The notes under the pieces are model-generated. The model saw only the letters and a list, made by a program, of their open reading frames with translations, had not been told where the DNA came from and did not search any database. Positions 15,977 to 46,575 of a stretch of 64,000 bases of DNA are shown here, in pieces; the stretch's first letter is position 1; each line of letters starts with the position of its first letter. This DNA is from a virus. The position numbers and the translations under genes are program-made. The stretch lies in IMG/VR virus record IMGVR_UViG_3300035053_000291. The stretch is one strand, 5' to 3'.

Positions 15977-16273
15977 TTAGAACAAGCCTCCTTTGATCAT
16001 TTCTGCCATGCTTACGGTCTTGTCTTCATAGCTAATTCCTGCCTTCTTGAAGGTGGCAAGAACGTCTATCTTTCCGTCTTCATCTCGGACTGGTTTGAAT
16101 CCTGCCACGCAGGCACCAACTGAACTGAATCGTTGGATGTCGTCATAATGCAGGGTGTCCTGCATCCTGCTGGCATATTCTTTGCCGAGGGCTTGTTCCA
16201 ATGCTTCTATTCCAGACTTACGTCCTTTTCTGCTGGCGTCTGGAGTGCCAGCTCTGTTCGTTGCATTTCGCAT
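15977..16273 (-). CDS. Hypothetical protein
   Basis: ORF track, GGAG SD. Confidence 0.65.
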   Translation of the reverse strand: MRNATNRAGTPDASRKGRKSGIEALEQALGKEYASRMQDTLHYDDIQRFSSVGACVAGFKPVRDEDGKIDVLATFKKAGISYEDKTVSMAEMIKGGLF

Positions 16274-16293: not shown

Positions 16294-16320
16294 TTCAGCC
16301 TTCGCTTGTTAGAAGGCTGA
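16294..16320 (-). terminator. Hairpin immediately 3' of mini-tRNA element
   Basis: TCAGCCTTC-N8-GAAGGCTGA, 9-bp inverted repeat. Confidence 0.55.
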
Positions 16321-16321
16321 T

Positions 16322-16370
16322 TCCTATGCCGGGGGTCGAACCCGGATCATGCTGCCAACTGGCCATAGGC
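16322..16370 (-). ncRNA. Anticodon-less tRNA-like element 1
   Basis: G-CCTATG...CATAGG-A acceptor-like stem, D-loop-like CAGTTGGC, T-arm CCGGG-TTCGACC-CCCGG; no anticodon arm. Confidence 0.65.
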
Positions 16371-17649: not shown

Positions 17650-17776
17650 GGGTACACGCTCCCATGGCATAAAAACAGCGCAGGCAGACCCAACGCATGG
17701 TTCCTTTGTCGTCCAGTTTCGTTCGCAACTGCTTGTGTGCCTCCCCACACGTACTACAGTGCTTTCTTTCGCTCAT
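17639..17776 (-). CDS. Small Zn-finger protein (45 aa, CSTC...CLRC)
   Basis: Manual translation, AGGAG SD. Confidence 0.65.
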   Translation of the reverse strand: MSERKHCSTCGEAHKQLRTKLDDKGTMRWVCLRCFYAMGACTHDN

Positions 17777-17998
17777 ATTGTTGTTTTCTCCTTTGTTCTT
17801 TTGTGGTCCTTTCCGGAACTGAACCGGTCTGGACCATGATGAAAAAAATGATGTTTTTATGAAAATTTAAATAGAAGAAAAAAGATTGAGGAGGTGTTGT
17901 TTTCTCCTTTGTTGGTCCTTTCCGGACCATCACTGGAGATTCGAATACTGAAAAGGGAAAGAAAGGACGTTTTAGTCCTTCTTTCCTACACCACCTAT

Positions 17999-18301
17999 CT
18001 ATTGGTAGATGTCCCGGATGTATGCCGGGTTTCCCCAACTTGTTTTTAGTTCCTTGAACTCCTCTTCTTTTGGTTGTTCTTCTGGTTCCTCTAGATCGAT
18101 GGTCTCCTGTATGTGGTCGAAATGCCCTTCTGCTGTAGTCTCTTCCCGGTCTTCCAACCGGATCGTTTCAGCTAGGTCTTTGTTTTCCTGCTCGAACTTG
18201 TCGAATTCCTGTTCCAACTCATCACAGAACGCATCAAATTCCCGTTCTAACTCATCGATTCGTTTGCCTTCTTCAACTTTTACTGTAAAATCTATATCCA
18301 T
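17999..18301 (-). CDS. Hypothetical acidic protein, C-terminus IYQ
   Basis: ORF track, GGAGG SD. Confidence 0.7.
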   Translation of the reverse strand: MDIDFTVKVEEGKRIDELEREFDAFCDELEQEFDKFEQENKDLAETIRLEDREETTAEGHFDHIQETIDLEEPEEQPKEEEFKELKTSWGNPAYIRDIYQ

Positions 18302-18357
18302 TGTTTATTCCTCCAAAAAATAAGTGGAAAATGGGACAGGTGTCCCATCCTTCCCTC

Positions 18358-18651
18358 TTAGTATGCTCGGGCTCCTCCATTGGCAATGGCATCTTCGATG
18401 AGTTGCTGGCGTCGGTAGATCTTTTCAGTCACATTTGCTGCCTTTTTCTGTTCGACCTCTTGCTGCCACATCCTGACAACTGTCTCTGGGACGGTCTTTT
18501 CGATCATTTCCAAGGCTTCTTCTTTCCTCATCAGGTCGTCAAAAGACATTGTTTCTGTCTTTGCTGCTGCCTGATAGATCTCTTTTGCCTCTTCGTATTT
18601 GATATGTTCGTCGTTTCCTGCGTTTCCTTTATATATCTCTTTTCTATTCAT
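18358..18651 (-). CDS. Hypothetical protein
   Basis: ORF track, AGGAG SD. Confidence 0.7.
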   Translation of the reverse strand: MNRKEIYKGNAGNDEHIKYEEAKEIYQAAAKTETMSFDDLMRKEEALEMIEKTVPETVVRMWQQEVEQKKAANVTEKIYRRQQLIEDAIANGGARAY

Positions 18652-18815
18652 GTTATGTCGCTCCTATTGTGCCCGGTTTTTCGCACCTCAATTTATTTTG
18701 CATTTGCCGGGCATGGTGGGGGTTGCTTCTCAAACCCCTTTTTCGCCCCATTCTGGATCTGAACCAGGCTGGGACATAGTGAAAAAATAGAAGAAAAAGG
18801 GAGAATGGTGTTGGT

Positions 18816-19118
18816 TTACTGCACCCTTCTTTCGATTGTTCTTTGGATTTCCCATCTGATCTTCATGCACATCTCAAAGACGAGGGCTATTCCATCCAGA
18901 TACGTTCCATATCTTTCTTTTATTGATTGGAAACAGAAGAAAAGCGCCACCAGATTCAGGGAAAAAAGCGCTATGAATCCTTGAAAATGCTGCTGTTGCC
19001 ATTTGAATATGAATCCAAAGGCGATTCCTGTTATCTGAAATGCAAGAGAGATGGATAACCAGCCATATACTCGAAATTTTTCTGCATCCTTCTGTTCTTT
19101 GTTTCCTAAATATCTCAT
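18816..19118 (-). CDS. Small membrane protein (2 TM)
   Basis: Two hydrophobic segments, SD. Confidence 0.7.
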   Translation of the reverse strand: MRYLGNKEQKDAEKFRVYGWLSISLAFQITGIAFGFIFKWQQQHFQGFIALFSLNLVALFFCFQSIKERYGTYLDGIALVFEMCMKIRWEIQRTIERRVQ

Positions 19119-19130
19119 GTTTCTTCCTCT

Positions 19131-19253
19131 TTATTGATGATGTTTCTGCTCCAATACCCTGATATATGCCTCTTCGAGCATACTGCAAGGGACGATTTCT
19201 TCTGCTGCTGCCACTTCTGCCTCAATTTGTTCTATTTCCTTTTCTGTATACAT
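19131..19253 (-). CDS. Small acidic protein (40 aa, MYTEKEIEQIEAEV...)
   Basis: Manual translation, AGGAG SD. Confidence 0.6.
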   Translation of the reverse strand: MYTEKEIEQIEAEVAAAEEIVPCSMLEEAYIRVLEQKHHQ

Positions 19254-19369
19254 GTTGTTTTTCTCCTATATCAGCCAGACAACCGCTTCTCAGGCTGTCA
19301 GCTGTCTTGTTTTTTTCAAAAAATGTGGTCCTTTCCGGAATTGAACCGGTCTGGACCATGGTGAAAAGG

Positions 19370-20239: not shown

Positions 20240-20283
20240 TCCCAAGCAGAGGAATCGAACCTCTGGGAAGGCCATTCTTGGGC
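20240..20283 (-). ncRNA. Anticodon-less tRNA-like element 2
   Basis: G-CCCAAG-AATGGCCTTCC-CAGAGG-TTCGATT-CCTCTG-CTTGGG-A; 6+6 bp coaxial stack. Confidence 0.7.
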
Positions 20284-20810: not shown

Positions 20811-20931
20811 GGTTTTTCTCTTTAGGTAGGTATGCCAGGATATTTTCCCCTCCTGGCTGGGTTGGATGCATCCCTTCCAGGTTATTTCTTTATTTTATAG
20901 GGGAATATGGCAGAAAAAGGCTTGTTTTGAA

Positions 20932-21006
20932 TAGCGGGAGATGGACTCGAACCACCGATCTGGAGGATATGGGCCTTCCGGGATGACCAGGCTTCCCCAT
21001 CCCGCT
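20932..21006 (-). tRNA. tRNA-Met(CAT), archaeal initiator-type, altered anticodon arm
   Basis: 75-nt cloverleaf AGCGGGA/TCCCGCT, A1:U72, D-stem GGGA/TCCC, TTCGAGT T-loop; CCA not encoded. Confidence 0.9.
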
Positions 21007-21329
21007 AAAAGGAGTATGGTTGCAGGAAAAAAAGCATTCATTTAGGGGACAAAAGCCATACGAAAGATCCTGCAACCATGGTTTACCTATGGCAAGCAAT
21101 ATCACAAATTGAATCTAGAGGTAAAAAGGCTTGTTTCGGGAGGGAGAAAAAGGGAGAAAGAAATGCAAAAAAAGCCCTTCTTCTCCCCGGTGATATGTAT
21201 GAATGGCAGAGATGAGGGGCATTTGAACAAAAAATCTCTATGTATTGGCAGATACGAGGAATAAATAATGCACTCTGCCCCTCATTACAATTCTACAGGA
21301 GTATATTGGGAGGTAAAAAGGCTTGTGTT

Positions 21330-21611: not shown

Positions 21612-21656
21612 AAAGGCTTGTTCTCAAAAGAAAAAAAGAAAGGGTGTTGATTCCCT

Positions 21657-22559
21657 TTAGTTTGGCATTAACCAAGTTTGCATCGTATAGTCGCCTTCTG
21701 TTATCAACATATCAAATTCGTACTTGACTATCGTAGTATAGAAACTGTTTTCAGGTAAAATGAATTCAGTTCCTGGTGCAGGTTGAATACAAACATCAAA
21801 GAGACTTGATGAATCACCAGTTGATTTTCCTGGGATATATGCTTGTTGACCGTAACTTGTTTCGATATCGCCCATTACTTTGATTTTTTCTCCGAGTTTT
21901 TCGGCTGGAACAGTGATTGTATGTTGACCATCAAAACCAATACCATCATGGGTTATGGTGTAATCTGGTTCACTTCCAGTTTTGTATTCAAATTCATGAA
22001 TCCATCCAGAGCTGGTATAATACCATAAATCTGGAATTTCTGATGACATTACGTCCATTTGCCAATTATACCATCCATTACCATCGGTATCAATTGCGAG
22101 TAGATATGCTTGGGATGGGAATTCGAATCTGTACTCATCATTTTCACAATCATATACAATGTCGAATTTTCTGGTGTCATCCCCACCATAATAATCTTCT
22201 GTATCTTCACCTGCATCATACCATTCGATGTCATGCAAATCCATATTGGTTAAATGATATGACGTAGTTACACCATTTGGAATACTTTCCGATAAATACA
22301 CTGGTGCTTCCTGTGAAGCTCTGTTTTTAATGTAGAATGTTTTGCATACTGTGTCTCCACCAGTTACATCACCAATAGACATATCAACTACATCATCGTA
22401 TGGTTTCCATTCGCCACCAGCCTTTTTAATAACGACTGATTGTTTCACGTTTGCGGTTGTTTCAACTTTTCCATAGTATGTTAGCAATCCTGCTGATACA
22501 ACAACAGCTGATATTGCGAGAACTGCTAATATACCTAGTACTTTTCTTCCGATTTTCAT
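21657..22559 (-). CDS. Secreted/surface protein with TasA/camelysin-like (SipW-type) N-terminus
   Basis: Basic plus hydrophobic signal followed by AGLLTYYG..TANVKQSV. Confidence 0.65.
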   Translation of the reverse strand: MKIGRKVLGILAVLAISAVVVSAGLLTYYGKVETTANVKQSVVIKKAGGEWKPYDDVVDMSIGDVTGGDTVCKTFYIKNRASQEAPVYLSESIPNGVTTSYHLTNMDLHDIEWYDAGEDTEDYYGGDDTRKFDIVYDCENDEYRFEFPSQAYLLAIDTDGNGWYNWQMDVMSSEIPDLWYYTSSGWIHEFEYKTGSEPDYTITHDGIGFDGQHTITVPAEKLGEKIKVMGDIETSYGQQAYIPGKSTGDSSSLFDVCIQPAPGTEFILPENSFYTTIVKYEFDMLITEGDYTMQTWLMPN

Positions 22560-22575: not shown

Positions 22576-22598
22576 GACCCCTCTTTCTTTTTGGGGTC
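22576..22598 (-). terminator. Hairpin 3' of mini-tRNA element 3
   Basis: GACCCC-N-GGGGTC inverted repeat. Confidence 0.5.
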
Positions 22599-22600
22599 TA

Positions 22601-22656
22601 TACATCAGGACAGGACTCGAACCTGTTCTCTTTTATTGAGGGCCATTGCTGATGTC
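22601..22656 (-). ncRNA. tRNA-like element 3 (vestigial 3-bp central hairpin)
   Basis: G-ACATCAG-CAATGGCC-CTCAATAAAAGAG-A-ACAGG-TTCGAGT-CCTGT-C-CTGATGT-A. Confidence 0.65.
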
Positions 22657-38576: not shown

Positions 38577-38652
38577 TTCAGCACCCTCCGATTGTCCGCA
38601 CTGCTTTAAACATCATAACTTCTACTGGGAAAAGACATATAAAGGCTTGTTA

Positions 38653-46104: not shown

Positions 46105-46575
46105 TCAAAATGATTTGATCTTCACTTCTTTTTTCTTATATATCGGTGGCAGTTCTTCCATCTTATCCGCAAATTCCTGGACTGTCTCTTCTGGAACATC
46201 ATGTGTTTGCCTTTCTACTGCAATCTCGACAGGTGTCACCATGTGTACGAAAAAAACCTCGTATTGTTTTTCCATTGCTTCCTCAATGTAAAAAGACATG
46301 GCACGCATGGACAGATTGGTATTGTCCACAACGATAAGTTGGTCCCCGTAGGCAAGTGCCTCTTCAAACTGGTCCCGGCAGTATTGATGTGCTTCACCAA
46401 TCAAATCGATGTCGAACTCATAGTTTCCTTCCCCATCAACAAAATAATGGTCTGCTGAACAAACCGTGGCATGACTATAGTTCTGGCGGACAAATGTTGA
46501 CTTCCCCGATCCAGGAATACCTCGCATGATGATCACTGCTCCGTTCAATTTTTTCAAGAGAGACACCTCAATCAT
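46105..46575 (-). CDS. AAA_33/N4BP2-like polynucleotide kinase
   Basis: MRGIPGSGKST, SADHYF, IVVDNTN, HDVPEE. Confidence 0.85.
   Translation of the reverse strand: MIEVSLLKKLNGAVIIMRGIPGSGKSTFVRQNYSHATVCSADHYFVDGEGNYEFDIDLIGEAHQYCRDQFEEALAYGDQLIVVDNTNLSMRAMSFYIEEAMEKQYEVFFVHMVTPVEIAVERQTHDVPEETVQEFADKMEELPPIYKKKEVKIKSF

Follow-up and report, generated by a model that had tools for sequence, protein, structure and literature searches.

A 64,000-nucleotide stretch of the IMG/VR virus record IMGVR_UViG_3300035053_000291 (hereafter the window) carries three copies and one relic of a small hairpin, hairpin 1, with each copy ahead of a small gene. Hairpin 1 is an RNA structure under selection for pairing, and it is a tRNA "top half", i.e. 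an acceptor-like stem stacked on a T-arm, without the D-arm and the anticodon arm. By analogy with known tRNA-like signals, we see about an even chance that hairpin 1 and its kin are t-elements that would recruit the host RNase P and tRNase Z, with a second hairpin, hairpin 2, capping or marking the new 5′ end of the message.

Hairpin 1 in the window and in related elements

A preliminary description of this region had placed hairpin 1 at four sites, and both the coordinates and the folds were as it had given them, the copies folding at about -16 kcal/mol (z about -3.2). The minus strand, i.e. the coding strand, is the functional one. On this strand the copies T4 (19358-19326) and T7 (17836-17804) read A-UGGUCC-AGA-CCGG-UUCA(A/G)UU-CCGG-AAA-GGACCA-C and have 44 nucleotides (nt) in common at 95% identity. 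T4 consists of an outer stem of 6 base pairs (bp), a 3x3 purine loop and a 4-bp T-stem with the loop UUCAAUU, and is located between a gene-free stretch at 19.4-20.2 kb and a gene for 40 amino acids (aa). T7, with the loop UUCAGUU, lies directly ahead of the ribosome-binding site (RBS) of a 45-aa Zn-ribbon gene (ATG at 17776). The third copy, T5 (18776-18744), reads UGUCCCA-GC-CUGG-UUCAGAU-CCAG-AA-UGGGGCG; sequence and fold both agree with the earlier view that its two stems are changed and still paired, and its two U.G pairs can form on this strand only. The fourth site, the relic T6 (17913-17929, minus strand), retains the outer stem of hairpin 1 alone. Its inner hairpin, the T-arm, is deleted as had been described, but the deletion lies between two TCC repeats, not between CCGG repeats as stated there, and it creates a CCGG. 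T6 is followed by a copy of the RBS stretch, ACAAAGGAGAAAACAACA, without a start codon.

A covariance model of the copies, as the preliminary description had proposed, was built from five hairpin-1 copies and run over the 64 kb. The three window copies scored 56-62 bits (61.9 for T4 and 62.5 for T7) with E-values of 1e-17 to 1e-19, while the next-best match reached 14 bits and corresponded to hairpin 3 of the T5 module (18718-18667), where the flanks are shared and the T-arm is absent. All remaining matches had at most 13 bits and E-values above 0.05; one of these, at 26131-26095, lies inside a gene (E 0.12) and was discarded as chance. The model found no hairpin 1 in the rest of the 64 kb beyond the three copies and the relic, all within 1.6 kb.

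Related elements were reached by several routes. Ten contigs with the 97-aa protein encoded behind T5 are the same element at 99-100% identity and added nothing. Contigs L011, L012 and L017 were found through the 442-aa and 98-aa proteins, and L019, L020 and L021 by a profile of the acidic 100-aa protein; L013 is a 6.2-kb contig with 44-70% protein identity. The contigs stem from the JGI samples 3300043113, 3300035043 and 3300035545 and from SRR11802653 and related runs. Together with the window they gave seven distinct sequences of hairpin 1 and seven of hairpin 2. In three diverged relatives a hairpin stands before the same two genes, with rewritten stems that still pair and with the loop UUCRR and its closing G-C pair unchanged. 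Before the Zn-ribbon gene the hairpin persists in three elements that share 44-70% protein identity. The window has there the outer stem UGGUCC/GGACCA and the T-stem CCGG/CCGG (6 bp, 3x3 internal loop, 4 bp), the T7 ortholog in L013 (420-457) is a plain 6+5-bp minihelix of CUCUGG/CCAGAG and GUCAG/CUGAU with the loop UUCGAUU, and that in L021 (947-982) has a 9-bp outer stem UGGUUCUUC/GAAGGAUCA, one bulged A and the 4-bp T-stem CCAG/CUGG. Pairing is thus conserved through rewritten stems in the additional homologs, on which the preliminary description had made its proposal depend. The flank UUUUUUCAUCAUG is constant across these three hairpins, and the 5′ flank UUUUCAYYAUG of hairpin 1 is conserved as well. 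The T5 copy is identical in L019 and near-identical in L021.

In the alignment of the five copies 96% of the cells are paired, and four pairs are altered on both sides, in contrast to 32-58% paired cells when the registers are slid. The coding-strand stems contain seven G.U pairs, and at these places the fold of the opposite strand is poorer by 2-5 kcal/mol or the hairpin is lost from it, which points to a selected RNA structure of the coding strand and not to a DNA palindrome. The module is not universal, since no tRNA-like element follows the acidic-protein gene of the distant relative L020. Exact-pattern scans gave no further copy in viral contigs and none in metagenome contigs, and the one match in genome contigs, inside a Nocardiopsis transposase open reading frame (ORF), is about what chance predicts; protein-guided scans of the viral, metagenome and genome collections returned nothing, and a word search found no relatives of the 97-aa protein.

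Two other classes were considered for hairpin 1 and rejected. A dispersed palindromic repeat, of the repetitive extragenic palindrome or miniature inverted-repeat transposable element type, does not agree with three copies and a relic confined to 1.6 kb of the 64 kb, and is also contradicted by orthologs that diverged via compensatory change at fixed sites. A small ORF that would begin with the conserved ATG at the base of this hairpin was dismissed given that frames and peptides vary among orthologs, that it is in frame with the Zn-ribbon gene in L013 only, and that the changes are compensatory and not synonymous.

tRNA likeness, the tRNA-like cluster and hairpin 2

All copies and orthologs of hairpin 1 fold as an acceptor-like stem on a T-arm, with an outer stem of 6-9 bp and a T-stem of 4-5 bp that is closed by a G-C pair and bears loops such as UUCAAUU, UUCGAUU and UUCAGUU. 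From the loop to the end of the helix the stack counts 11-14 layers against 12 in tRNA (13 in the window if the 3x3 or 2x2 purine loop is counted as stacked, 11-12 in L013 and 13-14 in L021); RNase P measures only this T-arm/acceptor stack, of 12 bp (PMC4919913). The T-arm motif GGTTCRANYCC served as a search motif for the t-elements of plant mitochondria, for which simple acceptor-like stem-loops have also been proposed as signals (PMC1920247). T4 (GGTTCAATTCC) fits this motif in full and the neighbouring elements T1, T3 and T8 fit it too, while T5 and T7 have a G at the position of A58 and L013 has AGTTCGATTCT.

Hairpin 1 is one of several such structures in the window. Between 16.3 and 22.7 kb there are eight tRNA-like elements: a tRNA-Met, three anticodon-less elements, the three minihelices and the deletion relic. 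Six of the eight precede an RBS, the exceptions being tRNA-Met and T3. T-arm-like hairpins of the minus strand number seven (T1, tRNA-Met, T3, T4, T5, T7 and T8), all of them within these 16.3-22.7 kb and none in the other 57 kb. The tRNA-Met, at 20931-21007 on the minus strand, is genuine and of archaeal type (45.5 bits). T1 (22576-22655, minus strand; 22655-22602 in the count of T-arm-like hairpins) starts right after the stop codon of a 207-aa gene and is followed by an ACCCC/GGGGU hairpin, a GGAG and an ATG at 22559. At the upstream edge of the gene-free stretch stands T3 (20241-20282, minus strand), with the acceptor CCCAAG/CUUGGG and the T-arm AGAGG-UUCGAUU-CCUCU. T8 (16323-16369, minus strand), an anticodon-less element with the acceptor CCUAUG/CAUAGG, the T-arm CCGGG-UUCGACC-CCCGG and the discriminator A at 16322, has orthologs in L012, L013 and L017, of which that in L012 retains a hairpin resembling an anticodon arm. 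In T1, T3 and T8 the acceptor stems are 6-7 bp long, the discriminator is an A, the loops are canonical UUCGA and traces of the middle part of a tRNA persist; within this series, reduction has gone furthest in hairpin 1.

The preliminary description had proposed a new cis-regulatory RNA leader. What stands of this is a structured, covarying and cis-acting module in front of small genes, absent from Rfam, where the hairpins have no match at gathering scores or up to an E-value of 10; but hairpin 1 is no new fold, being a tRNA acceptor/T-arm minihelix within a cluster of eight elements. The possibility that hairpin 1 is an attachment-site scar, or tRNA fragment, was examined and rejected, since it shares only the T-loop with tRNA-Met and possesses a 5′ acceptor strand, a part missing from a scar made of a 3′ fragment. 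Viral, metagenome and genome collections scanned for the pattern were empty except for a chance match inside a transposase ORF, a test that is limited by the host genome not having been identified.

Two further structures were noted beside these elements. Directly upstream of T8 there is a hairpin in the window (16410-16375, minus strand), L012 (about 425-478) and L013 (about 1890-1935), whose CUCAAC/GUUGAG stem is CUCUAC/GUAGAG in the relatives, a compensatory change from A-U to U-A; if RNase P cuts there, this hairpin would be located at the 3′ end of the released leader. A T-arm-like hairpin of 4-7 bp also occurs inside the 98-aa gene of the relatives (L011 480-500, L012 724-744, L017 664-678). 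In L011 and L012 it has the sequence CCAACGGTTCAGTTCCGTTGG, which codes for QRFSSVG, and the window has GATTC at this place. It is probably a coding coincidence, and such motifs can therefore arise by chance.

Hairpin 2 was described as an identical loop on unrelated stems, and this was borne out. The loop is UGAGAAGC in both copies, at 19278-19299 in the T4 module (stem GACAGCC/GGUUGUC) and at 18719-18738 in the T5 module (stem GGGGUU/AACCCC), both on the minus strand, and the AGGAG and AACATG reported after each are present. In the T4 module AGGAG is at 19267-19263 and the ATG at 19253-19251 (40-aa ORF, 19131-19267, minus strand). The T5 module contains in addition hairpin 3 (UGCCCGG...CCGGGCA, 18670-18713, minus strand), between hairpin 2 and the AGGAG at 18665-18661 that precedes the 97-aa ORF (18358-18651, minus strand). 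A third hairpin 2 follows T8 at 16295-16320 (minus strand), with a 9-bp stem and the loop UAACAAGC, then GGAG and the ATG at 16273 of the 98-aa gene. Hairpins of at least 5 bp with the hairpin-2 loop number three on the minus strand, against 0.15 expected from shuffled sequences.

The loop motif C-U-R-R-N-A-A-G-C-G tops seven stems that differ from one another, each of them on the coding strand and within a module, i.e. at T4, T5 and T8 in the window, in the T8 orthologs of L012/L017 and of L013, and at the tips of hairpin 3 in L019 and L021, where that hairpin is kept; no hairpin with a URRNAAGC loop was found elsewhere in these loci. All seven stem pairs of hairpin 2 are altered on both sides across six copies. 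At T1, T3 and T8 the following hairpin begins 1-3 nt past the discriminator, which is the predicted 5′ end left by tRNase Z, and a stabilising role for hairpin 2 is plausible. The conservation of its loop across elements with about 50% protein identity points to an RNA-binding partner.

The T-loop as a structural motif has a reverse-Hoogsteen pair of its positions 1 and 5 and a stacking gap between 4 and 5; in the seven hairpin-2 loops U1 and A5 are invariant. The loops of the form U(A/G)AGAAGC (UAAGAAGC, UGAGAAGC) also resemble the loop of helix 43 of 23S rRNA, GGCU-UAGAAGC-AGCC, a sequence confirmed in a bacterial large-subunit rRNA fragment (L030, L031). The two have the letters AGAAGC on a C-G-closed stem in common, but the loop in the rRNA has one base fewer and functions within a folded domain of 58 nt, and the likeness is a resemblance only, from which no function follows. 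It is a long shot, in our estimate, that the loop is a specific recognition module which together with the minihelix makes a two-part tRNA/rRNA mimic controlling the processing or translation of the small genes. Such a device, suggested by the T-loop-like U...A pentad and the helix-43 resemblance, would not have been described before; the loop would either dock on the T-loop, which lacks its D-loop partner, and so rebuild the tRNA elbow, or bind a ribosomal protein or translation factor.

Proposed processing by tRNA enzymes and competing explanations

The presence of hairpin 1 among eight clustered tRNA-like elements fits the t-element class better than a free-standing regulatory leader. If they are t-elements, a long transcript or leader would carry the tRNA-like element in its 5′ leader or at a gene junction, the host RNase P would cut at the 5′ edge of the element and the host tRNase Z just past its 3′ edge, after the discriminator, thereby splitting the RNA into separate messages. 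Hairpin 2 would then be at or near the new 5′ end, just ahead of the RBS, where it could block 5′ exonucleases or bind a factor. The structures themselves exist, are paired under selection, strand-specific and tRNA-like, and are conserved before start sites; their transcription within longer RNAs, the cleavage, the identity of the cutting enzymes and the role of hairpin 2 are inferred. For at least two of the elements the geometry places them inside longer RNAs, since T1 occupies the 96 nt that separate a stop codon from the next start, with no space for a promoter, and T8 is about 115 nt downstream of a TATA box (TTATATA) that is conserved in the relatives.

Several observations weigh against processing. 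In half of the hairpin-1 loops the near-invariant A58 is replaced by G (UUCAG loops), and the stack, continuous in tRNA, is interrupted in the window copies by a 3x3 or 2x2 internal loop. Only the tRNA-Met at 20931-21007 was found with ARAGORN and the tRNA model of Rfam (RF00005), with no copy of hairpin 1 up to an E-value of 10. T-runs lie directly upstream of every hairpin-1 copy, and a TATA-like word precedes T7 by 30-45 nt, both in the window and in L021, so that some copies may be the 5′ end of a primary transcript or be reached by read-through only. At T5 the same word is only about 10 nt upstream and, if it is a promoter, transcription would start inside the hairpin. The gap from hairpin 1 to hairpin 2 is 5 nt at T5 and as much as 26 nt at T4, and hairpin 2 is absent at T7 and from all the relatives' copies before the Zn-ribbon gene, from which it follows that hairpin 1 does not need hairpin 2 or the T-loop/T-loop contact that the preliminary description had thought possible.

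Three contigs from two elements (L008, L009 and L021) begin 10-12 nt upstream of T5 (18788 in the window, position 1 of L021), and one contig ends 3 nt after T8. The starts near T5 may reflect either a genuine end or a place where the assembly broke because a junction varies. Contig ends were also considered as transcript ends and set aside, since the other ends are scattered and the paired contigs share an overlap of about 20 nt, as is usual at assembly breaks, which is no evidence either way.

A rather unlikely alternative is that the leader is not cleaved, both hairpins staying on the mRNA to protect its 5′ end or to control translation via a bound factor, e.g. a tRNA-binding protein. The TATA-like word before T7 would put hairpin 1 at the very 5′ end of the primary transcript, with nothing for RNase P to remove, but L013 has no such word before its T7 ortholog, and T1 and T8 are internal to longer RNAs by their geometry. 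The fixed loop of hairpin 2 on varying stems would fit recognition by a factor, and the flank UUUUCAYYAUG is conserved beyond the needs of a bare cleavage site; on the other side, the real tRNA and the fuller tRNA-like elements nearby favour the tRNA-processing machinery. Folds of the whole leader suggested that the UUUUCAYY of the flank sequesters the RBS, but the duplexes, at a weak -2 to -7 kcal/mol, do not surpass those with shuffled or random partners, and this mechanism was rejected. We consider it improbable that the elements act as DNA, either as a recombination or insertion site at a cassette border (an integron attC-like site or repeated palindrome) or as a palindromic operator, with the RNA structure as a by-product. 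The window and L019 do not differ in the T5 module or in the 26 nt upstream of it, yet the module follows a membrane-protein gene in the one and a different gene in the other; the near-identity of T4 and T7 over 44 nt in one element, the origin of T6 as a partial duplicate with a microhomology deletion, the pseudo-copies of gene starts nearby and an integrase-like gene in the element would also agree with it. However, the G.U pairs on one strand only make an imperfect double-stranded palindrome, the tRNA T-loop sequence is kept although neither a recombinase site nor an operator requires it, and stems that differ among copies in one element are not readable by one dimeric protein. Furthermore, the orthologs changed by compensation at fixed positions, nothing beyond the T-loop matches the tRNA-Met of the element, and the viral, metagenome and genome collections hold no copy other than the chance match in the transposase ORF.

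It is very unlikely that the hairpins are transcription terminators or attenuators of the upstream genes. T4 is followed at once by AUUUUUUG, T-runs are plentiful around the modules, and the acidic-protein gene ends in a separate 12-bp hairpin and U-run; nevertheless what comes after T5, T7 and every ortholog is rich in A and has no T-run, the T-runs being upstream instead, and the T-loop sequence would be left without explanation. Archaeal transcription termination is not known to require a hairpin. With a downstream T-run at T4 only, the class of intrinsic-terminator-like hairpins was rejected.

Processing of messages at tRNA-shaped units has known counterparts. In animal mitochondria, tRNA punctuation defines the cleavage points of polycistronic transcripts (review: PMC3790967), and the window similarly has tRNA-shaped units between genes, but those of mitochondria are functional tRNAs and those described here are mostly non-decoding mimics. 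Bacterial mRNAs can carry stabilising stem-loops at their 5′ terminus, to which hairpin 2 is comparable by its place at or near the predicted processed 5′ end, upstream of the RBS (within a few bases at T1, T3 and T8); the bacterial stem-loops are not known to have a feature like its conserved 8-nt loop, which suggests specific recognition. There is a likeness in form to the t-elements of plant mitochondria, where a tRNA-like T-arm with an acceptor-like stem lies beside mRNA 5′ or 3′ ends (Forner et al. 2007) and is cut by RNase P and RNase Z (PMC1920247). In contrast to these, the elements described here are from a probably archaeal mobile element, include a minihelix of just 33 nt whose internal loop is made of purines, with a G58 in half of the loops, and are joined to a fixed-loop second hairpin and an RBS. 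In Haloferax volcanii, an archaeal tRNA-like element upstream of the 5S rRNA frees the neighbouring RNA through processing by tRNase Z and RNase P and has been put to engineered use (PMC4326828). The Haloferax t-element (Maier et al. 2015) comes, however, from an rRNA operon and synthetic constructs, is not repeated before protein genes of a mobile element, is unrelated in sequence and has no counterpart of hairpin 2.

The principle of t-element processing is already known, and the form seen here is undescribed: Rfam and the literature searched contained neither the bare minihelix, nor its repeated occurrence ahead of small genes in an archaeal mobile element, nor the coupled fixed-loop hairpin. 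If the cleavage is real, a mobile element would borrow the host's universal tRNA-trimming enzymes to cut its messages, the t-element principle would extend from mitochondria and haloarchaea to archaeal viruses or plasmids, and a minimal natural substrate would be defined, namely a minihelix of 33 nt that contains an internal loop. Minihelix, fixed-loop hairpin and RBS together form a compact and portable cassette, which could serve as a gene-separating part for archaeal genetics.

The mobile element and its small genes

The source of the window is an uncultured virus- or plasmid-like element that is probably archaeal. Nearly all of its ORFs are on the minus strand, and they encode PCNA, a dUTPase, an RNase H-like protein, AAA ATPases, an integrase-like protein and a type III restriction-modification pair, next to the archaeal-type tRNA-Met; no recognisable virion genes were found in it. 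Neither an RNase P nor a tRNase Z nor a CCA enzyme was detected in Pfam and PHROGs scans of approximately 60 ORFs. The element seemingly depends on RNA cutting, and the ORF at 46105-46575 (minus strand), which matches AAA_33 (E 1e-12), a family including polynucleotide-kinase-like proteins, could bear on RNA end chemistry.

The hairpin region is a run of small minus-strand genes of 40, 100, 97, 100 and 45 aa. In the nearby 98-aa gene, the RBS and the first codons are duplicated within a few hundred bases upstream as degenerate pseudo-starts, once in the window (16640-16607 versus 16290-16255; 36 nt, 92%) and twice in L013 (820-850 and 1655-1690 versus 2025-2060). Four copies of the word ACAAGCCTTTTT are present in the window, at 21621, 21326, 21134 and 20925, on the minus strand only. 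Three of these copies, all except that at 21134, are directly 3′ of a gene or of tRNA-Met, and the word looks like a termination signal; the related word AACAAGCCTTTATATG at 38651 looks rather like a promoter with a B recognition element and TATA box.

Two hairpins flank the acidic-protein gene. The first, AUGGGACA-NN-UGUCCCAU, an iterated palindrome GACARYTGTC followed by a U-run, separates this gene from the 97-aa gene in the window (18345-18310, minus strand), L013 (35-70) and L021 (445-480), and a similar hairpin ends L020. The second, a perfect 12-bp hairpin GGAAAGAAGGAC...GUCCUUUCUUUCC followed by CUUUUC, lies directly 3′ of the gene in the window (17985-17945, minus strand), L019 (905-935) and L021 (783-808), with a less exact form in L013; by its appearance it would be a terminator.

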